Shown here piece after piece: positions 4,939-45,500 of a stretch of 64,000 nucleotides of DNA. The stretch comes from a virus: the IMG/VR virus record IMGVR_UViG_3300032293_001294, positions 1-64,000 of that record; one strand, 5' to 3'. The stretch's first letter is position 1, and each line of letters opens with the position of its first letter. The position numbers and the translations under genes are program-made. Below the pieces are notes generated by a model that worked only from the letters and a program-made list of their open reading frames with translations, was not told where the DNA came from and searched no databases.

Positions 4939-7900
4939 ACTCTTCTCTCCTTATAAATAATACCAAAGTTTTGAAGTTTATATAAACCTTTTGATATAAA
5001 TTGAAGTTTAAGTCTAAATACTTTACCTAACCCTAGTATGCTTGTACGGTGGGTAAGTAACTTGCTAGACGTGTATTCTGAAAAATCCATCAGCATGTTA
5101 TTGTTTTCAAATAAGTTATTAGTTAAAGAATATTTAACAACATCTGTTGCAACTTCTGAAATTTGATTAACATCAACAAGTTCAATAAGATCTTTTTTAT
5201 CTTCTTTTTTTACAGTTACATAGTAAGAAACATTGTTCGAGTCTATGACTTGTAACTGTTCATTATAAAAAGGTCTGGCAACAATTTCATCGATCATAGT
5301 TTCAAGATTAAATAACACATTACCTGCATTAAGGTTTTTAAACGTTACATGTAGATCCCGGAAACGTTTAAAAAGATGATTATTTAAATTCATGTTACCT
5401 GTATCTATTAAACAGTTAATACCTTCTTTTTTAAAGTTATTAGTAAACGACATATCAACGTAATTATCTCTAGTATTAACTTCAACATATGGTAATGTAA
5501 AATAAAGTTTATTGTTTTGTTCTGTAATAAATAAATCTCCGCTATCAATAAAACGTTTATCAAATATATTTGTAAAAGTTAAAGTATCATAAGCAGTATA
5601 ACGATTGTTAATGACATCATAAATTAACATATAAGTAATAACCCCAGGCACGTAATAAATAATTTTAATGAAGTTAATCGAAACCAAAGCTTTGATTTTA
5701 ATTTCATTTCTATTAACACGCATTGGACTTCCATACGATGCTAAACGTTCGTTAATATATACTTCGTAATTTTTAAGAATATCATTAGCGGCTTTATTAA
5801 AGTATTGAATACTGAATCGTGTTTGATCATCTATTTGACTACTTGGGCGTATCATAAATAACTGTCCGTCTTCAGAATAAAATAAAATCATTTGATTAAA
5901 TATTTGTATAACATCAGTGTAGTCTGTATTAACAAGAAGATTATAAAGAACTGTTTGTTTAAGCCAAGCTGAACCTGTAACATTTTGTTCAATTTGATTT
6001 GTTGCTGTATTTAATTGTGTTGCAACTGTTTCTACACGGTACACTGCGTAAAGATGTTGTCTAGTAAATACAAGAATAATTTGTTTATATTGAAGTACTT
6101 TAACAATCTCTTCTCCAAATTCAACACGATTACGTTCTTTGAACCAATAAAATTTACCTTCTTCTGAAATGTATAATACATTTTCATACCAAGTAAGTAA
6201 TCGGCTATCTTCAAAAACAGTCATTGTGTTACTTGTTTGTATTTGAAGTGCTTCTTTTTCTTTAAATTTTTCAATAAAAGTTACTTGGTCTTTGTCGTAT
6301 GTATAAACTAAATTAAACGTTTGTGTAAAACTTGTTGCACCCCAAACAGCTTTTAATGTTTCAAGTTCTTCAAAGTTTTTAGATGTGCCTTCGCTATTTA
6401 AAAATTCAGAATCATTGTAAGGCTTCATGTAAAAAATACCTGTAACACCTTTATCAAAAAATCCTTCATCTTCTAAAGCTAATATTTGATTTGTATAAGG
6501 TGTAAAAGTTCCTACAGTAGCTGAAGTATTATACCAACGATACGTCGTATTTGTACGTGTATCATTATAAACTGTATAATTATTAAGCGCACTGTATGGT
6601 TCAGCATTTAAATTAATAACAACATTATTAAATGTTAAATTACTAGTACCTGAAGCTGTTGCAGGTAAACTCATGATTAAAGTATTTGAATCCGTTATTG
6701 ATGTAATAGTTGTTCCATTTGTAATTCCTGTTCCAGTAATGCTCATGCCTACGTATAAACTAGTTGTTGAACCTGTAATTGTTATACTATTATTTGTTCT
6801 TGTAAACGATCTCGTTACATTAGTTAAACTTCCATTTGTTGCTATACCTAAGTCTACCCAATTATTACCTAAGCCATTGTAAACACCATAGTCACTTTGT
6901 TCATAAACTTTATTATCTTGTCTAGAATGTACACGTGTTAAGTATGGAGCGTAAGTATTAACTCCTGGTGTGGTAAGATCTATTCTTATTGGCATAGCAC
7001 CAAACTGATGTGCACTCTGAAAGTTAATCACAGGTAAACTATAATTACCTAATTCTGATATATTAGCTTCAAGACTTGTTTGATTATTTATTTTTTTAAA
7101 AAAGAAAAAGTCACTATTAATATTCACATTGTTTTTAGTCAGATAATCTGCAAAAGAACTATTACCACTCCAATAATTTAAAGAAGCAAAAAACCAACGT
7201 GTTGTTATTTTTTCTGTAGTAGGGTTACTTACAGATGTTAAAGAACCTATAGTAGCCGTAGCATTATTCCATTGATAATAAACATCACGTCGATCATCAA
7301 AATAATACGCACCTTTAACAAAAAATGTACTATTAGGAACATCACCTGTTGTACTGACTTGAGTATAGGTCATACTTGTTGTTCCAGAAGTTTGTTTATA
7401 AACATAACCATGTTGTGCTATAGATGTATTAATAACTTGAACAAACGTATTTACAGGTACTTTTAAATTACTATTTTCTCCATCAGTTGGAAACTGATTA
7501 AAATAATAAGGAGTTCTTGTATCAAACGAACTGTTACTATTAAAAGTATTCACTTCTGCTGTAGTAGTTAAAGTATCTTTTGTCGCAAAAGGTAATAGTT
7601 TAAAAGTTATATTATAGTTACTTTTAAAAATATTATTAGTTTCAATAAACTCAATAAGTTTATCACCATTTAAAAACATGTCATAGTTAGTATCTTCTAC
7701 GGCAGCATTAATAGAAAAAGAACGTGTATTAACAGTACTGTTATCTTCTAAACTAGATTCAAACTCTTCAAACTCTCCTTTAGTAGCGCTTGAAGTTAAA
7801 TTATAAACATGAAACACTGCGTTTGCGGATATTAATCTAATCGCATCTCGTAAACTTTTTAAATTATTAATTTTATCAATTCTACTTTTCCAATTGCTAT

Positions 7901-9422
7901 ATGTTGTTCTAAACGTATCGATTGTAAAATTAGACAATTCAAATGCTGTAGCACTGTTAGTAGCTTTTGCAGGAAAGCTTTGATCTAACGTTGCATCAAT
8001 TTGCACTGTATCGCTGCTAGTTGTTGTAATTGTAGTAGCTTTAGGTACAATAAAAATTACAAAACGAGAACCTTGATAATGATTTAAATTAGGATCTTCG
8101 TTTCCTAAACTAATTGAAGTTCTAGAGGTATTAAAAATTTTTACTGGAGTTGAACTAACACCGTCATAAGACATCCATGGTGACGAAAAAACTACTTCTT
8201 TTGTTTTGTCTGTAACTTCTGTAGAAGTATTAAAAAATTCTACTTTATACGCCCACTTATTATTATTCAAAATAAAAGTTAAACTTGTAGTTCCTGACGC
8301 TGTAGCTGCCAGGCTAATAGTAATAGAAGTAGTACCAACATTAGTTACAGTTGTGTTAGCAGGTATTCCAGTTCCAATTACTTGTTGTCCTGTCTTAATA
8401 TCTTCTACATTAATATTTGTAATAATAGTACTTCCTGATGTTCTTGTACCTGTTCTAAATACTTGAAACTCATTATTTAATTGTATAGCCGCAGGGTTTA
8501 ATGAAAAGTACGGTTTAATTGTATAGTCTTTTCCGCGTTCAATAAAATTATTAACATATTGATTTGCTGCGTCGTATACATAAACAAAGTTACCAAGTGT
8601 AGTAATACTTCCTGAAGGTACTGGGTTTACACTATTAGGATTAATTGATTCTGGTTCTGTATAAAGATTTTGAAATACCGTAGGTATAATTGATTTAGAT
8701 ACAGCAAGATTCCGTTCAGTAGGAGCAAGTGTTGGATGCTCGAACATATAAGGAAGACCTTCAATAACAAGTGTATCTGCTGCATTTCCACCTGTCTCAA
8801 ATTGTCTATATCTAAGCTGCATTATAAAATTAAAAGATGGTTCTTGTTCATCTCCTGTATCTAATGTAACTTTTACTAAAGCACGGCTAATACCGTCCTC
8901 ATCATATATATGTTCTATTTTTGTATCAGGAATTGCTTTAATGTATTTAATATACTCTGTAATTGTTCCACTTAATTTTTGTGCTGCTGTACCTACAATA
9001 CTGTTATACCAATTTCTTACATAACTTACATTTGGAATAAGTACTTGTGTAAATAATAGATCCCAATCTTTATTAGCAATTATAGATTTAATAGGTAAGT
9101 AATATTCTGGAACATTGTACCCAGATATATCGGCTATGTATGCTACATTTGCAGTAATATCAAACAATATATAATCACCTATATTGTTATCTTTATATAT
9201 AATTGTGTTATTGCTCAATGAAATATGATTAACATTTTTTAACACTGTTGTTAAAAAACCTTCACGTGGTTTAACCGACTGTCCTGTATCAGAGACATCA
9301 AAGTTAACCATGTGTTTAAACAATCCTTCGTTTAAAGGATCGGTAGTTGCAACAATACCTAGATATCTAGTATTGTCGTAATATGATTTTTCAGGAAATC
9401 CCTGTACTGCTTTTCTAGCCAT
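4935..9422 (-). CDS. Tail nozzle / stabilisation protein with inserted beta-repeats
   Basis: 1495 aa, beta-rich; N-terminal YLGI...MVNFDV...VKPREG and C-terminal FKRFRDL...GKVFRLKL...GIIYK resemble P22 gp10/T7 gp12-type nozzles; follows the adaptor. Confidence 0.65.
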   Translation of the reverse strand: MARKAVQGFPEKSYYDNTRYLGIVATTDPLNEGLFKHMVNFDVSDTGQSVKPREGFLTTVLKNVNHISLSNNTIIYKDNNIGDYILFDITANVAYIADISGYNVPEYYLPIKSIIANKDWDLLFTQVLIPNVSYVRNWYNSIVGTAAQKLSGTITEYIKYIKAIPDTKIEHIYDEDGISRALVKVTLDTGDEQEPSFNFIMQLRYRQFETGGNAADTLVIEGLPYMFEHPTLAPTERNLAVSKSIIPTVFQNLYTEPESINPNSVNPVPSGSITTLGNFVYVYDAANQYVNNFIERGKDYTIKPYFSLNPAAIQLNNEFQVFRTGTRTSGSTIITNINVEDIKTGQQVIGTGIPANTTVTNVGTTSITISLAATASGTTSLTFILNNNKWAYKVEFFNTSTEVTDKTKEVVFSSPWMSYDGVSSTPVKIFNTSRTSISLGNEDPNLNHYQGSRFVIFIVPKATTITTTSSDTVQIDATLDQSFPAKATNSATAFELSNFTIDTFRTTYSNWKSRIDKINNLKSLRDAIRLISANAVFHVYNLTSSATKGEFEEFESSLEDNSTVNTRSFSINAAVEDTNYDMFLNGDKLIEFIETNNIFKSNYNITFKLLPFATKDTLTTTAEVNTFNSNSSFDTRTPYYFNQFPTDGENSNLKVPVNTFVQVINTSIAQHGYVYKQTSGTTSMTYTQVSTTGDVPNSTFFVKGAYYFDDRRDVYYQWNNATATIGSLTSVSNPTTEKITTRWFFASLNYWSGNSSFADYLTKNNVNINSDFFFFKKINNQTSLEANISELGNYSLPVINFQSAHQFGAMPIRIDLTTPGVNTYAPYLTRVHSRQDNKVYEQSDYGVYNGLGNNWVDLGIATNGSLTNVTRSFTRTNNSITITGSTTSLYVGMSITGTGITNGTTITSITDSNTLIMSLPATASGTSNLTFNNVVINLNAEPYSALNNYTVYNDTRTNTTYRWYNTSATVGTFTPYTNQILALEDEGFFDKGVTGIFYMKPYNDSEFLNSEGTSKNFEELETLKAVWGATSFTQTFNLVYTYDKDQVTFIEKFKEKEALQIQTSNTMTVFEDSRLLTWYENVLYISEEGKFYWFKERNRVEFGEEIVKVLQYKQIILVFTRQHLYAVYRVETVATQLNTATNQIEQNVTGSAWLKQTVLYNLLVNTDYTDVIQIFNQMILFYSEDGQLFMIRPSSQIDDQTRFSIQYFNKAANDILKNYEVYINERLASYGSPMRVNRNEIKIKALVSINFIKIIYYVPGVITYMLIYDVINNRYTAYDTLTFTNIFDKRFIDSGDLFITEQNNKLYFTLPYVEVNTRDNYVDMSFTNNFKKEGINCLIDTGNMNLNNHLFKRFRDLHVTFKNLNAGNVLFNLETMIDEIVARPFYNEQLQVIDSNNVSYYVTVKKEDKKDLIELVDVNQISEVATDVVKYSLTNNLFENNNMLMDFSEYTSSKLLTHRTSILGLGKVFRLKLQFISKGLYKLQNFGIIYKERRV

Positions 9423-28440: not shown

Positions 28441-29217
28441 ATGGCACTTAAAGGTAAAGACATTCTAGTCTTCTTGTCAATTAAATACCAAGGAGACTGG
28501 AATAAAATCTATCAAGCAATTAAAAATAAAGAACTTGTCGATGAGCCACAAGTTCAAGAAACTGTTTCTAAAATAGAAAGTAAGATTGTCACCATCATCG
28601 ATGAAGAATACCCTGAATCCTTAAAGAAAATATACAAACCACCGTTTGTTGTTTACTATAAAGGTGATCTAAAGTTGTTGAATAAAAACAATGTAGGTAT
28701 TATCGGTACTAGTAATTTCAGTCATGAAACTGCTAAAAGACTAAATACTTTATTAAGAGAAACCAAACTAAAGTATCCAGGTATTACATATGCCACCATT
28801 AATAATTCTGGTTACGAAGGATTTATTAATAATACATACAGTAACGAATCTGTCTTAGTATTAGATAGAGAAGTTAGATCGTATGATAAAGAAAAATTAA
28901 TCATCTCTGAATACCCAGAAGGTAGTCCAGGTAACAACGAACATCGTCCATGGGCAATGAGAATATTAGCAGGCGTTACAAACGCTTTGCTAATTCCAGA
29001 AGTGAAACGCAAAGAAGACGCACTCATTGGTGCAGGATACGCATTGTATCTAAACAAATCGATTGGTGTATTTTCACAACCAAAAGATAAAGATGATGCA
29101 ACCCATCAGTTAGAAGAAGACGGCGCTAAAATTATTCTTAGTGCAGCAAATGTGTTTGAACTAACACAACTGCTTGCATATAAAAAAGAAGATAGTGTTC
29201 CAAAAGAAATGCAATAA
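28441..29217 (+). CDS. dprA: DprA/Smf-like ssDNA-binding protein, divergent
   Basis: IDEEYPESLKKIYKPPFVVYYKGD, GIIGT, IISEYP; N-terminus LSIKYQGDWNKIYQAI. Confidence 0.8.
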   Translation: MALKGKDILVFLSIKYQGDWNKIYQAIKNKELVDEPQVQETVSKIESKIVTIIDEEYPESLKKIYKPPFVVYYKGDLKLLNKNNVGIIGTSNFSHETAKRLNTLLRETKLKYPGITYATINNSGYEGFINNTYSNESVLVLDREVRSYDKEKLIISEYPEGSPGNNEHRPWAMRILAGVTNALLIPEVKRKEDALIGAGYALYLNKSIGVFSQPKDKDDATHQLEEDGAKIILSAANVFELTQLLAYKKEDSVPKEMQ

Positions 29218-39951: not shown

Positions 39952-40863
39952 ATGCCAATCATATTACAAGCAGCCGTTAAGACGCTTAAGCCGTTGAAGG
40001 TATTGTCCTATGGACCTACCTATAGTGGCAAAACGCTTAGCTCATTGTACCTTGCAGTCGGTCTTGTTATGAAGATCCGTAAGTGTACTGAAGAACAAGC
40101 GTACAAACACATAGTCATGATCGACACTGAGTTCGGTCGTGGCGCACTCTACAATAAGATCGGATTGTATAACTACATCCGTATCGATCCACCGTACTAT
40201 ACCGAAAAGTTAGTTGATCTTATCAACGAACTCAATGGTATGGAACAAGTCGACGTGATTATCACGGACTCACTTACACACTTCTGGGTTAAAGAAGGCG
40301 GCATCCTAGATCAAAAAGCTGCTAAAGATAAGCTAGGTGGTAACTCATATACCAACTGGCAAGACTTTACCACTAAGTTTAATAAGATGGTTGACGCTAT
40401 CTTAGCATCACCGAAGCATATCTTTTCCACAGCACGTGCGAAAACGGATACCGCTTTAGTCACAGGTGACAATGGTAAAGCCACACCTAAGTCCTATGGT
40501 CTCAAGCCTGAGCTACGTGATAACGTTGAGTATGACTTCGATATTGTTTTCAATATTGATAAGTTATCCCACAACTTAATCGTAGACAAAGGTGTCCCTG
40601 GTCTTAAGCCAGTCTATGATATCGCTACTGTTAAAGTAGGCCAAGAAATCTATGACTTGTTTAGTGCTGACGCAGTGGTACCTGTACGTAGTAAAGCTGA
40701 CATTGCAGACAGCATTCGTAAAGTTGCCAAAGATAATGGCATGATTCCATTTGTTCAATTAGAATTACGTGGACGTAAGATTGAAGATCTTACAGAACAA
40801 GAACTTAAAGCAATGGAAACCATGTTACTTAACAATCTTAAGAAAGCACAAATCAAAAACTAA
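39952..40863 (+). CDS. Sak4-like AAA ATPase / ssDNA annealing protein
   Basis: GPTYSGKT, IDTE.GR, ITDSLTHFW..EGG, EYDFD. Confidence 0.8.
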   Translation: MPIILQAAVKTLKPLKVLSYGPTYSGKTLSSLYLAVGLVMKIRKCTEEQAYKHIVMIDTEFGRGALYNKIGLYNYIRIDPPYYTEKLVDLINELNGMEQVDVIITDSLTHFWVKEGGILDQKAAKDKLGGNSYTNWQDFTTKFNKMVDAILASPKHIFSTARAKTDTALVTGDNGKATPKSYGLKPELRDNVEYDFDIVFNIDKLSHNLIVDKGVPGLKPVYDIATVKVGQEIYDLFSADAVVPVRSKADIADSIRKVAKDNGMIPFVQLELRGRKIEDLTEQELKAMETMLLNNLKKAQIKN

Positions 40864-40915
40864 CCTGACACAGCGCTGGCATACCGCAATATAGTATGCC
40901 TTAGGAGGTGAACAC

Positions 40916-41710
40916 ATGGCTAACATTAGTGAAGCCACAGGTTATTTACAGCTTATAGGAGATTGGACTAGAGAACAAGCAACTAATTTTGCTTACATGT
41001 TATACACAGTAGAGCATGCAGCAACTGACTATACAACAAATACGCATTTATCTTTTGATAAACTTGTAGATGAATTGTCTTTTACACAACAACAAGGACA
41101 CCATATTACAAGAAACAAAATACCTTTCGAAGGATTTGGAAGATGGGCGTTCAGTGCTAACTTAGAAAACTTTCAGCATTGGACAGAGGTTACTAAAGAA
41201 CGCTGGAAATCACAAATACTTCCAAGCATTACGCCTTCTTTTAAAATTACTTTTGAAGAATATAAACAGCGTAGATTAGAAATGATACGTGACTTTGCTA
41301 AACATAAACTAAAAGTGTTTTGGCAATACGTAGATATGGAACCTGGTGTTAATTACTTAGGAAAGATAGAAGGCTATATGTCTTGTGCCTTTGAGTATTC
41401 TACAGTCGATCATACCAATGAATACATATTAAAATTTATTATAAAAAATTCAGAAGATTATGAATGTACGCTTAGAAACCAATGCATGTTAATTGAAAAT
41501 GATACTCAACGTTTATTTGAAATCGCGGAAGGACTACGAAAAGTTTATAAGTTAAGCAAGGATATTTCTGTCGTCACTAAGATCTTTAATACGATCTATG
41601 AACATCCAACCTGGTACGATTTACCAGCGTACGCTAACATTGAAACTCTAGAAGATGTACCAGATGCGTTACATAAAGCTATCTTTAAGATGGCAAAAGG
41701 AGATAAATGA
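40916..41710 (+). CDS. Hypothetical protein
   Basis: AGGAGGTG RBS. Confidence 0.65.
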   Translation: MANISEATGYLQLIGDWTREQATNFAYMLYTVEHAATDYTTNTHLSFDKLVDELSFTQQQGHHITRNKIPFEGFGRWAFSANLENFQHWTEVTKERWKSQILPSITPSFKITFEEYKQRRLEMIRDFAKHKLKVFWQYVDMEPGVNYLGKIEGYMSCAFEYSTVDHTNEYILKFIIKNSEDYECTLRNQCMLIENDTQRLFEIAEGLRKVYKLSKDISVVTKIFNTIYEHPTWYDLPAYANIETLEDVPDALHKAIFKMAKGDK

Positions 41711-41985
41711 ATGTAAAAGATTTATTGTCTCTTGTTAAATATGATTCTAGTTCACCTGTTTTATTTAATATTAATGGTAAAGATTATCATTACTATGATG
41801 TACTTAAAGATGAAAAGTTATTAAGTATATCAATAGATAAAATAAAAATACAAGGTAAAGTTCTAGAATTAAATGAAGAAGATGTTATCAAAATAATTAA
41901 TAAACCTACTATTAAATCAACAGATGTTAATCTTATGATACCTAATAGTAGCTATTATTACTTGATTACTATTAAAATAAATTGA
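41707..41985 (+). CDS. Hypothetical protein
   Basis: AAGGAG RBS, ATGA overlap. Confidence 0.55.
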   Translation: MNVKDLLSLVKYDSSSPVLFNINGKDYHYYDVLKDEKLLSISIDKIKIQGKVLELNEEDVIKIINKPTIKSTDVNLMIPNSSYYYLITIKIN

Positions 41986-42001
41986 GAAAGGAGAACATTA
42001 T

Positions 42002-42337
42002 ATGTTCAAATATTTATTTAATGGAGTTATTTATAGTGCAGATACAATCGAAAACTTGCAAAGTATACTTACTAAAGCAGGTTATAAAGGAGATGTTATC
42101 GCTGAGTTCGAAGCAATTAATAAAGAGAACGAAGAACAAGATAATGCTGCTAAAGAATATTTAAAAGAAGAAGCAGAAGATTTTTCATTAAAAGAAGAAG
42201 CAGTACAAGAATCTGCAAATGATCTTAGTCAAAAAGAAATAGATCAAATGTTTAATGAATCAGCTGTTGATGTAGAAGAAAATTCTGATGGTTCATTTTC
42301 TGTTGTAACAGAAAAATCTTTTAATGATTTAAATTAA
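42002..42337 (+). CDS. Acidic hypothetical protein
   Basis: AAAGGAG RBS; E/D-rich. Confidence 0.6.
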   Translation: MFKYLFNGVIYSADTIENLQSILTKAGYKGDVIAEFEAINKENEEQDNAAKEYLKEEAEDFSLKEEAVQESANDLSQKEIDQMFNESAVDVEENSDGSFSVVTEKSFNDLN

Positions 42338-42385
42338 ACTACACGTTTAGCCCACGTTACGGGCTCTCTAACTAAACTCTTTAAT

Positions 42386-42470
42386 GGGGTAGTCGGGTAA
42401 GACATATCACTTTAGCAGATGCTCCTGCTTAACATATGTAACGTGGGTTCAACTCCCACCTACTCCACCA
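42386..42470 (+). ncRNA. Miniature tmRNA-like RNA (Ala-accepting tRNA-like domain)
   Basis: Acceptor GGGGTAG/CTACTCC with G3.U70, A73, CCA; T arm GTGGG-TTCAACT-CCCAC; no D stem; P2-like ACATAT/ATATGT; AAC linker. Confidence 0.75.
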
Positions 42471-42487
42471 AAGAGTTTAGTTAGGTT

Positions 42488-42546
42488 AACTTATTACGGC
42501 ACCCAATAAGTTGATACATCACTCCTTCCTTTCATGTACGGGTGCC
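42488..42546 (+). ncRNA. Candidate pseudoknot RNA with an anti-SD loop
   Basis: AACTTATT/AATAAGTT, GGCACCC/GGGTGCC, TACAT-CACTCCTTCCTTTC-ATGTA. Confidence 0.5.
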
Positions 42547-42553
42547 AAGTATG

Positions 42554-42594
42554 TCTAGGATAGCAAGCTGATTACTTGCTACCTAGATTACTTT
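42554..42594. terminator. Terminator-like hairpin between convergent arms
   Basis: TCTAGG-A-TAGCAAG-loop-CTTGCTA-CCTAGA then TTACTTTT. Confidence 0.65.
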
Positions 42595-45500
42595 TATTTC
42601 AATATTGTAGCTTGTGATTGTCTGTACCGAACGTATTGTCTCCATTGAATATTCTTAACTAAACGATATGGATTAGTAGTAGGTCTACGCATTTTACCAT
42701 ACTTAGTAAACCAATCCTTGTATATATTTTCATACTTAGCCCAACGTCCATTACGTCCATAACGATAACGACGTGGTGTATATTTTTTAAACTGACTTAT
42801 ATCATACCCAATACCAGATATAGTTCTAAATAAAGTTGCTTGTCTTGTATCTAATATACGTGCTAATGATGGATCATTGCGTGCAATATCTTCTCTAAGA
42901 TTTGTACCCAACACCATGTCAGATAAACCAGTAGCAGTATTTACAAATCTTGTACCAAACCCAACAACAGCTAATTGAGCAAACCCTTTTAAAGCATCAC
43001 CATCTTTAAATAAACTTTGTATACCACGTAATAAAGGAGATGCTCTTCTAGTAAGTTCTATGTCAGTATTATAAATAAGATTCATGACATCAAATGCCCC
43101 GTTACCTATTCTTAATCCCCAATCTTTAGCAAATGGAATCCATCCTTGACGGATTTGATATTTAGTAAAGTCATCATATTCTTTAGTTTCTTCATCTCTA
43201 TATTGTGCATACCAACCATCAATAAAGTCAGATAAAAATCTCCAATACTTAGGACTCATTAATCTATCAATCCAGTTATTAATAGAACGTACAGGGAAAG
43301 ATAAGAATGGAATATCAGCAAGCAATCTAGTTTCTAACGGAGAACGCATACCATAATTAAACCAGTGATTTAAAGAATCTATTGTAGCTTGATCAAATGT
43401 TTTGTTATACAACATTAAGTTATAAAAGAAGTTAGTAATACGTGCAGCGTTTTCTATCTTAGTATTAGAATCAGTATACCAAGCAACAGGATTAAACTTA
43501 TTTAACCAACCACCTTTAACTTTATCTAATTGTTTTACAATTTGTTTATAAGTCATATTAGATTTATATGAATCTTTATAACCTCTATATTGTTCAAAGA
43601 ATTTAGGAAGTAATTCAAAACGGTCTTTACGTAAGTAGTCACTAAGTGCTTCTGTATTCATGAACGCACTTAATTGTTTTAATAAAGGTTTTTTAAATTC
43701 ATACTCATCAACTTTTTCTGCAATAGTTTTATGTCTTACAATTTGTCCCTGATTATTTTTAGCATCAGTTCTTAAACCAGCAACCCAAGTATTATTAATA
43801 ATTCGGTTATCATACATTTCAATGTATTCACCGAACTCTGTTTTAGATGCAAAAATAACAGATTGTTTTAACAAGTCTAAATACTTATCAATATTATCAG
43901 CGTTAGCTTCTTTTAATTTTCTAAATAAATTGATAGCTACTTTACGTCTTGTTTCAATATGTCTATTATTATTTTTAAGTGTGTCAGATATTTTAATATA
44001 GTTGAGTAAGAATTCTTTAATTAAATCTAATTTATTATTAATTACATTAGAATCTTTAACTGGTAATTTACTTGCTTTTAAAACATCTTCATAATGTAAA
44101 CCAATATTAATGATACTAATACTTAATTCATCGCTATATTTTTCATACAACTTCATAAGTTCTAATGAGTTTAATGTACTATTAACATATCTATTAGACT
44201 CAATTAACTTAGGAATGATAATAGAGTTACTAAACATTTGATTAACACTATCAAAAATATTACGTGCTATGAAAGCGGCGTTTAATTTAGAAAGATTTTT
44301 TGACATGATTTGTAATGAGAAGAAAAACTTATCTACTTTATTAGGCAATTGATAAGGAGAGTACACATCATTCATCGTGTCCATCCAGTCATTTAAATCT
44401 ACAAAACCAATGATATCACCTTTTAAATTTTGATCATAGATTTCTTGGAAGTCTTCAAAGTTATCTACAATGACTTCTTTTAAAGTAAAGTTAATATTTT
44501 TATTTGTAGCTAAAATTAATTTAGGATCAATACGGTTATACACTTTATTATCAAATACAACTTTACCACCAGCTCGTTGCCATGCTTCAAGGTTTTCTAA
44601 AGCAGAAATCTTTTTACCATTTACAACTGTATCTTTAAATAATAAGTCATTATAAATAGAGTTATCAATTAAACCAAACTTTTGACCTACTTTTTCTATA
44701 ATGTTTAAATCTTTTTTCTTATTAGTTGGGAATAAAACATCATCATAACGTGGATCATATTTTCTAATGCGTTCTGTAACAAGTTTAAATCTACCTTCAT
44801 CAGGATCAGCGTGTCTAATCTGCACAAGTTTAAACTGTTGTTGCTTTGTTGTGTATAGTTCGTAAGCATTTTTTAAACTTCTAATTCTATTATTAGAACT
44901 ACTGTTATCAACCATGTTCTTTAATAAAGTAATGCGATTATACATACTAAGTAATGAACGTTCTTTATATGCTTTTAAATCTTGCTCAGTTAAAACTTTA
45001 GGTTTCTTAACGGTAGTATCACCCATACCTTGACCACCTAAACCATCATCATCAGGAGTTCTTAATAAAAGAATTAAACCACCGATGTTATCAACCACAG
45101 CTTTCTTTAAAAGTTTGCTTCTAATATCTGCTTCTTTAGTATTAAGTTGAGTTATTTCTTCCTTAATAGTTTCTACTGGAGACTTACTTTGCTCAAGTAA
45201 TTTAACGTAGTTGTCTAATGGATCAATGCTTTCTTCAATTTCTTTAATTTCATCTTGGAATAATGAAATTAATTCTTGAATCTTATCAGATTTTAACTTG
45301 TTATTTGTAGCTTTGTTGTTTAATTCAGACAATCTACTTATGTTATTTCTTGTTAATGTTTCTTCTAATTTAGATTTAATTTCTTTAGATTCAATAATCG
45401 TTTCAGCATCTGTTTTATATTTTCTATTTTTAGTATCAGAATTTATTTTTTTAATAGTTGCTTCATATTCTTTTTTAGTTTCTAAAAGAACTTCGATTTG

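Follow-up and report, generated by a model that had tools for sequence, protein, structure and literature searches.

A phage RNA gene that appears to be a tmRNA reduced to its tRNA-like domain, with a possible role as competitor for host SmpB

Introduction

Transfer-messenger RNAs (tmRNAs) that consist of the tRNA-like domain (TLD) only are recorded in print from one cultured phage and a few organelles (PMC4131195, PMC11915505). The phage case was listed as "Mycobacterium phage DS6A (TLD only)" by Hudson, Lau and Williams (PMC4131195) and stands on the tmRNA Website as tmID 11587. That article states that a molecule similar to the DS6A form strongly inhibits tmRNA, perhaps through titration of SmpB (PMC4131195; Mao et al., 2009, cited there), and the 2025 tmRNA database paper that the DS6A form inhibits endogenous tmRNA in Escherichia coli (PMC11915505). 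Coding-sequence-less (CDS-less) tmRNAs are found in jakobid mitochondria and some plastids, where they are kept together with SmpB (PMC11915505). A truncated, TLD-only tmRNA undergoes peptidyl transfer in vitro (PMC3895274), and in E. coli A15, U17, and A334 make up the pocket that receives SmpB Trp122, and G19 is required for SmpB binding (PMC8363625).

This article describes an 85-nt RNA gene of the same general design on a stretch of virus DNA, referred to here as the window, which comprises positions 1 to 64,000 of IMG/VR record IMGVR_UViG_3300032293_001294, a 75.7-kb virus record estimated to be 69% complete. The closest described relative is the 83-nt DS6A RNA, found at positions 28478-28560 of JN698994; its score with the Rfam tmRNA model, 43.2 bits, is also below the cut-off. 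Both RNAs are phage-encoded and ~83-85 nt in length, with a 7-bp acceptor that includes G3.U70, a stemless D loop, a short P2 with a small interior, an xAC linker, a T arm, and an Rfam score below the cut-off (43.2 bits for DS6A, 37 bits here). DS6A is a temperate actinophage, and its RNA has the D loop CAAUGGUGGUCGAC, a GC-rich P2 with a GAAAACC interior, and 3' ACTA in place of ACCA, whereas the window RNA belongs to an uncultured freshwater phage with a giant open reading frame (ORF) and has a shorter D loop, an interior that appears to be the relic of a tag-frame end, an encoded CCA, and a 15-bp flanking stem.

The CDS-less tmRNAs of jakobid mitochondria and Mallomonadaceae plastids are likewise natural reductions to the TLD, of ~65 nt or more (PMC11915505), but they are vertically inherited and work with nucleus-encoded SmpB. 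Engineered TLD fragments share the minimal design and bind SmpB and EF-Tu on the ribosome, where peptidyl transfer has been measured (PMC8363625, PMC3895274); these differ as laboratory constructs made from bacterial tmRNAs with canonical D loops. Standard tmRNA (ssrA; RF00023) has in common with the window RNA the TLD, the alanine identity, the start of P2, and a stretch homologous to the last tag-ORF codons with an H5-like hairpin. Unlike standard tmRNA, the window RNA has no pseudoknots, resume-codon region, or long H2, and measures 85 nt compared with ~350 nt. With tRNA-Ala it shares G3.U70, A73, CCA, and the T arm; the tRNA-Ala of one genome (G002) even has identical acceptor and T stems, but the D stem, anticodon arm, and anticodon of a tRNA are absent from the window RNA. 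The window RNA is therefore not a new kind of molecule: the DS6A RNA is its published phage precedent, CDS-less tmRNAs have a place in the tmRNA database, and the novelty claimed when the gene was initially annotated was overstated.

Structure of the RNA Gene and Its Flanks

The gene was initially annotated from sequence as a tmRNA whose mRNA/pseudoknot domain had been almost deleted, and every structural element proposed at that stage (acceptor, T arm, D loop, P2, linker, loop, and flanking repeat) is present. The features are as follows, all on the + strand.

42349-42365, + strand, leader hairpin (AGCCC, loop ACGTTAC, GGGCT), directly after the stop codon of a 111-aa ORF
42368-42382 and 42470-42484, + strand, 5' and 3' arms of a 15-bp inverted repeat, perfectly complementary, putative processing stem
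42386-42470, + strand, mini-tmRNA gene (tRNA-like domain only), 85 nt
42386-42392, + strand, acceptor 5' strand GGGGTAG, partner strand at 42460-42466, G3.U70 included
42393-42401, + strand, stemless D loop UCGGGUAAG, read directly from the sequence
42402-42439, + strand, P2-like helix of 6 bp, ACATAT (42402-42407) with ATATGT (42434-42439), closing the 26-nt interior
42409-42432, + strand, putative tag-frame relic ACT TTA GCA GAT GCT CCT GCT TAA (T-L-A-D-A-P-A-stop), from in-frame alignment with real tag-ORF ends
42440-42442, + strand, linker AAC
42443-42459, + strand, canonical T arm GTGGG / TTCAACT / CCCAC
42460-42470, + strand, acceptor 3' strand CTACTCC (42460-42466), discriminator A73 (42467), and encoded CCA (42468-42470)

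At 85 nt, with a short hairpin between the two TLD halves, the RNA falls within the size range of TLD-only tmRNAs (~65-110 nt), and it has the G3.U70, A73, and 3' CCA expected of a TLD-only phage tmRNA. The D region (DNA TCGGGTAAG, 42393-42401) is stemless and followed by AC; it contains GG and a G at the G19 position, P2 follows directly, and the linker is of the xAC type. This part of the molecule is a short variant of the usual TLD arrangement. The loop inside P2 is 26 nt long (42408-42433), contains GCA GAT GCT CCT GCT TAA, and forms an inner hairpin between AGCAG (42414-42418) and CTGCT (42425-42429). From the D loop to the T stem the distance is 41 nt. The fold predicted for the RNA with its flanks is exactly the structure listed, at -46.1 kcal/mol compared with -22.5 +/- 3.3 for shuffled sequences (z = -7.1; none of 200 shuffles was equally good).

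The 3' arm of the inverted repeat overlaps the last A of the CCA. In three relatives (L004, L007, and L008) the flanking stem reads CTAACTAAACTTTTT / AAAAAGTTTAGTTAG, a compensatory C>T / G>A double change that sustains the original argument for selection on this stem. The leader hairpin is kept in all group A relatives, and its closing A-T pair is replaced by a compensated G-C in L050, L053, and L054. Part of the leader, CCCACGTTAC / GTTTAGCCCACGTTAC (42345-42360), is complementary at 14 of 16 positions to 42438-42453, which spans the linker, the T-stem 5' strand, and the T loop, and leader pairing could in principle compete with folding of the T arm. A regulatory switch between leader and T arm was dropped as an explanation, the complementarity being weaker and not kept in L006 and L007. 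An alternative D-arm pairing of GGGU with loop ACUU/ACCU was also dropped; it was weakened by L009, and P2 accounts for the covariation.

Assignment to the TLD-Only tmRNAs

Standard gene finders do not report the RNA. ARAGORN called neither a tRNA nor a tmRNA in the 64 kb of the window, and none in the first nine related loci; Rfam at gathering thresholds gave no match in the window, of which the mini-tmRNA is the only tRNA-like gene. At relaxed thresholds the best Rfam family was tmRNA (RF00023), with 28.5 bits, or 37 bits in a search of the whole record, against a gathering score of 47; Rfam thus agrees with the proposed tmRNA identity in its choice of family and does so only below its own threshold. 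The match runs over model positions 1-374, with both model ends matched and 326 positions replaced by 45 nt. In cmscan the tRNA model (RF00005) scored below the tmRNA model and was removed by clan competition. The Rfam tmRNA score alone is not discriminating because an ordinary tRNA-Ala obtains 30 bits from the same model. The fold is no cloverleaf, having neither D stem nor anticodon arm, and together with the silence of ARAGORN and the preference of relaxed Rfam for tmRNA this shows that the RNA is not an ordinary tRNA, the alternative raised in the initial annotation. As measured against standard tmRNAs, the RNA lacks a score at the gathering threshold, a complete tag ORF with resume codon, PK1-PK4, and a long H2, and the Rfam model for mitochondrial (jakobid-type) tmRNA had no match up to E = 10 on 42300-42560. 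BLAST of 40000-45000 against cultured phages returned no match; the 85-nt RNA on its own matched cultured phages only in T-arm/acceptor segments of tRNA-Ala, tRNA-Met, and ssrA attachment sites.

A scan that left the D loop free found at least 27 further ARAGORN-negative RNAs of 73-109 nt. Most of the matches listed have the canonical tmRNA D loop (..GGUUUCGA, then a C that opens P2) and a GAC linker. Intermediate D loops, GGUAAGA (L157), GGUAAG (L136), and UCGGGCGAG (L131), bridge the window's UCGGGUAAG and the canonical form, GGUUUCGA...GAC. When canonical TLD-only RNAs are aligned, every one of them has AC ahead of the T stem. A covariance model, R1, was built from eight canonical TLD-only members, including DS6A and none from the window's lineage; a MAFFT alignment (A2) with staggered 5' ends was left out of model building. 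R1 gave the window RNA 42.7 bits (E 6e-8), the siblings L004, L009, L002, and L005 48-55 bits, and held-out canonical members 48-77 bits. The tRNA-Ala controls received 21.7-34.7 bits, and the window RNA thus lies above every control by a modest margin (~8 bits). Judged by sequence and predicted structure, the window RNA is best classed as a TLD-only (CDS-less) tmRNA from which the mRNA/pseudoknot part has been removed. The identity first proposed is in this respect upheld by the DS6A architecture, the R1 score, and the bridging D loops, and the phage family to which the RNA belongs is a large one.

Among the matches listed in the scan there were 56 candidates, 27 of them without an ARAGORN call and the rest called as tRNA (27 as tRNA-Ala). 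A separate group (L070, L074, L097, L108, L140, L081, L118, and L128) comprises 79-80-nt alanine-type RNAs with a long 5' region, GGGACTGCTTGGGGTGGTC..., and no RNA of this type is among the 27 listed without an ARAGORN call.

Conservation and Distribution

Relatives were gathered by an exact search with the 3' half and by two pattern scans of viral and metagenome contigs, which yielded 17 distinct sequences; more than 20 independent contigs carry the RNA. In the alignment of these 17, 97.2% of cells pair compared with 78.4% in shuffles, a comparison to be read with the knowledge that the D-loop motif GGGTAAG was imposed by the scan patterns and that nine of the 17 sequences have one common acceptor stem. 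Pairing falls to 53-60% when the partners are slid by one to three columns. Eight pairs have changed on both sides, among them acceptor pairs 5-68 and 6-67, three of the five T-stem pairs, and outer P2 pairs; in the T arm 100% of cells pair. G3.U70 is kept in all 17 sequences, the 3' acceptor strand having been left unconstrained by the scan patterns. P2 is kept with wholly different sequences, such as ACAATCT/AGATTGT, TTAACCTA/TAGGTTAA, TATTAC/GTAGTA, and others.

The RNA is far more conserved than its surroundings. For the five window-type contigs with full flanks, mean pairwise identity is 99.3% over the RNA, 54% over the 102 nt upstream, and 81% over the 110 nt downstream, and the sole variable base of the RNA among those five lies directly after the UAA. 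At least nine independent contigs have the identical 85-nt form, as do contigs of three DNA studies. Window DNA is present in freshwater and lake metagenomes from 14 studies, and in one lake run only 42344-42492 aligns, the flanks on either side being unalignable. No full-length tmRNA was encountered among the relatives or the public runs examined, and a search of the viral collection with the 5' 16-mer GGGGTAGTCGGGTAAG recovered mini forms only, so that a recent deletion or a misassembly, which the initial annotation had singled out as a danger to its reading, is not borne out. The same observations bear on the idea that the RNA has no function and is what is left of a full-length tmRNA, of phage or host, in decay, or that it was created by faulty assembly. 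A resemblance of the interior to a leftover tag reading frame (see below) would suit a remnant, but the recurrence of an identical form across independent contigs and three DNA studies, the identity of 99.3% compared with 54-81% in the flanks, the covarying stems, and the lack in the viral collection of any full-length RNA with the same 5' 16-mer bring this reading close to being refuted. The RNA is real and under selection.

The tRNA-like frame is found in three genome contexts: in the giant-ORF phage, upstream of a terminase gene, and after a RecE-like gene. Of the more distant members, L034 falls within an array of tRNA genes and L011 has a full tmRNA in its vicinity. Across these contexts and members the interiors are wholly different while P2 is kept by compensation; one tRNA-like frame occurring in three phage contexts with swapped interiors is one of two new observations here, the other being the nature of the window's own interior (see below). 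On the 9-kb viral contig L011, a full-length tmRNA occupies 5910-6281 (- strand; 72 bits, above the cut-off), and a 67-nt TLD-only RNA occupies 8651-8720 (+ strand), 2.4 kb from the full tmRNA and adjoining a tRNA-Ala(GGC) gene. L034:607-680, a mini-tmRNA on a 3-kb metagenome contig, lies within an array of at least 23 tRNA genes.

In L005 the RNA (L005:1481-1559) overlaps the end of an 83-aa hydrophobic, membrane-type ORF (L005:1236-1487), an arrangement also found in L009, L035, and L042. The TAG stop codon of this ORF falls inside the acceptor 5' strand GGGGTAG of the L005 mini-tmRNA, and since RNase P cleavage at G1 of an RNA of the L005 type would remove the TAG, the membrane-protein mRNA would become a non-stop message. 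A comparable overlap of smpB and ssrA is known from Carsonella (PMC4131195). The 83-94-aa membrane protein was rejected as a general partner of the RNA, as it accompanies only groups B and C and L024 and is absent from the window's phage.

The Interior of P2

The initial annotation had pointed out that the P2 loop has a tag-like reading (ADAPA-stop) and had allowed that this was possibly chance. Comparison with genuine tag-ORF ends shows that it is not chance. In the best case, the 26-nt loop and the tag end of a Christensenellaceae tmRNA are identical at 20 of 25 positions, in frame, without gaps, and with the same stop codon, and none of 2000 shuffles was as good; three further tmRNA tag ends align in frame with the same stop codon (p 0.004-0.01). 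The interiors of sibling RNAs, which served as negative controls, showed no comparable similarity to tag-ORF ends. The hairpin AGCAG/CUGCU resembles the strands of helix H5 in E. coli tmRNA. The window interior thus appears, with statistical support, to be a relic of the 3' end of a tag ORF, of which the last seven codons and the stop survive, and such a relic suggests that the RNA arose from a full tmRNA by internal deletion.

Whether the relic might still be read is a separate matter. As a working, minimal tmRNA the RNA would use the 26-nt loop as template and add a short ADAPA or TLADAPA tag that proteases do not recognize. The loop is homologous, in frame and with the same stop, to genuine tag-ORF ends; it is invariant across contigs except for the base after the stop codon; and full-size tmRNAs with 2-aa tags have been reported (PMC11915505). 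Siblings of the L004, L002, and L005 types, with an identical tRNA-like frame, nonetheless have 16-18-nt loops without a tag frame. In E. coli the template reaches the mRNA channel by way of a closed tmRNA ring, which encircles the 30S beak with dimensions of 81 x 97 Angstrom or more (PMC8363625). By estimate, neither a 26-nt loop nor the 41 nt that would be free if P2 melted could span such a ring. Both the siblings without the frame and this estimated shortfall in span make a working template unlikely. The bases 4 and 5 upstream of the GCA also argue against it, being U and C in the window RNA. At the corresponding positions 4 and 5 upstream of its GCA equivalent, E. coli tmRNA has A86 and U85. 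A functioning minimal tmRNA is accordingly very improbable.

Genomic Setting and Host

Two gene units converge on the intergenic gap that holds the RNA. The + strand unit is a replication module with a helicase, a family A DNA polymerase, an exonuclease, and a Sak4-like protein, and on the - strand an ORF of more than 7,134 codons occupies 42594-64000 and continues past the end of the window; the giant gene also adjoins the RNA in related phages (L004). Directly 3' of the RNA, at 42488-42546 (+ strand), is a conserved H-type pseudoknot, in which the loop GGCACCC of a hairpin, AACTTATT/AATAAGTT, pairs with a downstream GGGTGCC. The loop pairing covaries in relatives (GGCATTA/TAATGCC, GGCATCC/GGATGCC, and GTACCA/TGGTAC), and between the partners is a pyrimidine-rich, anti-Shine-Dalgarno-like segment, CACTCCTTCCTTTC, conserved as CCUUCCUUUC-like sequences. 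Neither an excess of sigma-70-like promoters nor an intrinsic terminator was found around the gene. In the single metatranscriptome examined, one contig maps within the giant ORF and the RNA is not covered, a result that bears neither way on its expression.

This setting, a gap between convergent operons that is flanked by other conserved structured elements, would suit an alanine-accepting or tRNA-shaped RNA with a role outside ribosome rescue, for instance as a punctuation mark between the convergent units, cut by RNase P and RNase III and serving processing and stability, as an alanine donor for a non-ribosomal transferase, or as a decoy for a host defence aimed at tRNAs. That it is the only tRNA-like gene of the window, and that the tRNA-Ala of G002 has the same acceptor and T stems, can also be counted in favor of such roles. 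They are nevertheless improbable. In other phages the RNA stands before a terminase gene, after a RecE-like gene, or inside tRNA arrays, and with positions so varied its value does not depend on the intergenic location that it has here. G3.U70, A73, and CCA, being invariant, suggest that the RNA is charged; the neighborhood contains no conserved partner enzyme, and the sole co-occurring gene, that for the small membrane protein, is absent here. As for a defence decoy, known anticodon nucleases require an anticodon loop, which the window RNA does not have.

A strong Shine-Dalgarno motif precedes 24 of 29 genes, and a low-GC host of the Gram-positive type therefore fits, whereas Bacteroidota does not. 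Among 185,579 species representatives, only two have a tmRNA whose acceptor and T stems are those of the phage RNA. These are Bacilli genomes of 1.2 Mb, and the GC content of the loci is 24-26%. A single tRNA-Ala was recovered from this pair, in G004, and neither it nor the tRNA-Ala of a third Bacilli genome (G001) matches the phage RNA; the G002 genome, whose tRNA-Ala agrees with the phage RNA in both stems, is unrelated. When 20 kb of the phage DNA was compared with 201 genomes of the candidate Bacilli order, only short, AT-rich matches at chance level were obtained. A low-GC Bacilli host is a lead only.

Proposed Function

Having neither pseudoknots nor a usable mRNA domain, the RNA cannot complete trans-translation, and it is for this reason most likely a competitor for SmpB, and perhaps for EF-Tu and stalled ribosomes. 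By analogy with the DS6A form, we consider it probable, with confidence somewhat better than even, that this TLD-only tmRNA ties up host SmpB and interferes with trans-translation. As to its processing, charging, SmpB binding, and effect on the host, we infer the following course. A small, stable RNA would be excised from a read-through transcript of the replication operon, with the 15-bp flanking stem serving as a site of double-strand cleavage; the mature RNA would begin at G42386, by RNase P cleavage, and finish with the encoded CCA. The host AlaRS would add alanine by recognition of G3.U70 and A73, and the stemless D loop and AC linker would bind host SmpB as does the tRNA-like domain of tmRNA. 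The outcome might be less tagging and degradation of phage proteins, or the blunting of a host response that depends on rescue.

The determinants for SmpB in the window RNA are assigned by position only: with the two molecules aligned on GG, G42401 takes the place of E. coli G19 and A42441 that of A334, and the pocket bases differ. Compared with the canonical tmRNA D loop, UCGGGUAAG is short and has no UUCGAC, and the linker is AAC and not GAC; binding of SmpB is therefore not assured. No SmpB gene was found in the phage record (~69% complete).

The same structural evidence would serve a tag-free form of ribosome rescue, in which the charged mini-RNA, with host SmpB and EF-Tu, accepts the nascent chain on its alanine, and an ArfB-type hydrolase, or Pth after drop-off, frees it untagged. 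Peptidyl transfer to a TLD-only tmRNA in vitro (PMC3895274) and the retention of CDS-less tmRNAs with SmpB in jakobid mitochondria and some plastids (PMC11915505) are in keeping with such an activity, and the occurrence of a mini form beside a full tmRNA (L011) or within a tRNA array (L034) suits a role that favors translation; the combination on L011 fits a purely anti-tmRNA role poorly. Against this, the sole functional report for such molecules is the inhibition of tmRNA in E. coli. After transfer, moreover, the ribosome would carry a peptidyl-RNA while its A site was empty and without a template, and it would stay stalled until a second factor acted, and no gene for a second factor is seen near the RNA. 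Tag-free rescue is thus an unlikely explanation.

Competition for SmpB, the reading preferred here, is not without difficulty, in that a plain decoy leaves the strict conservation of the interior unaccounted for. The window-type RNA might then be more than a decoy, with an invariant interior that is still functional, for example as the template of the smallest working tmRNA, giving an ADAPA-type tail to which proteases are blind; from the sequence as it stands, this extension is speculative and quite improbable.

Significance for Phage Biology

The locus adds evidence that TLD-only tmRNAs are a class of phage genes with a wide distribution and under strong selection, one that escapes both ARAGORN and Rfam when gathering thresholds are applied in the latter. 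A single tRNA-like frame travels among phage backbones and exchanges its interior as it does so, and the apparent tag-end relic is a direct clue that such RNAs derive from full tmRNAs by internal deletion. If SmpB titration proves true, these RNAs would be natural inhibitors of trans-translation, a pathway studied as an antibiotic target, and would offer phages a route by which to keep their own truncated proteins untagged.
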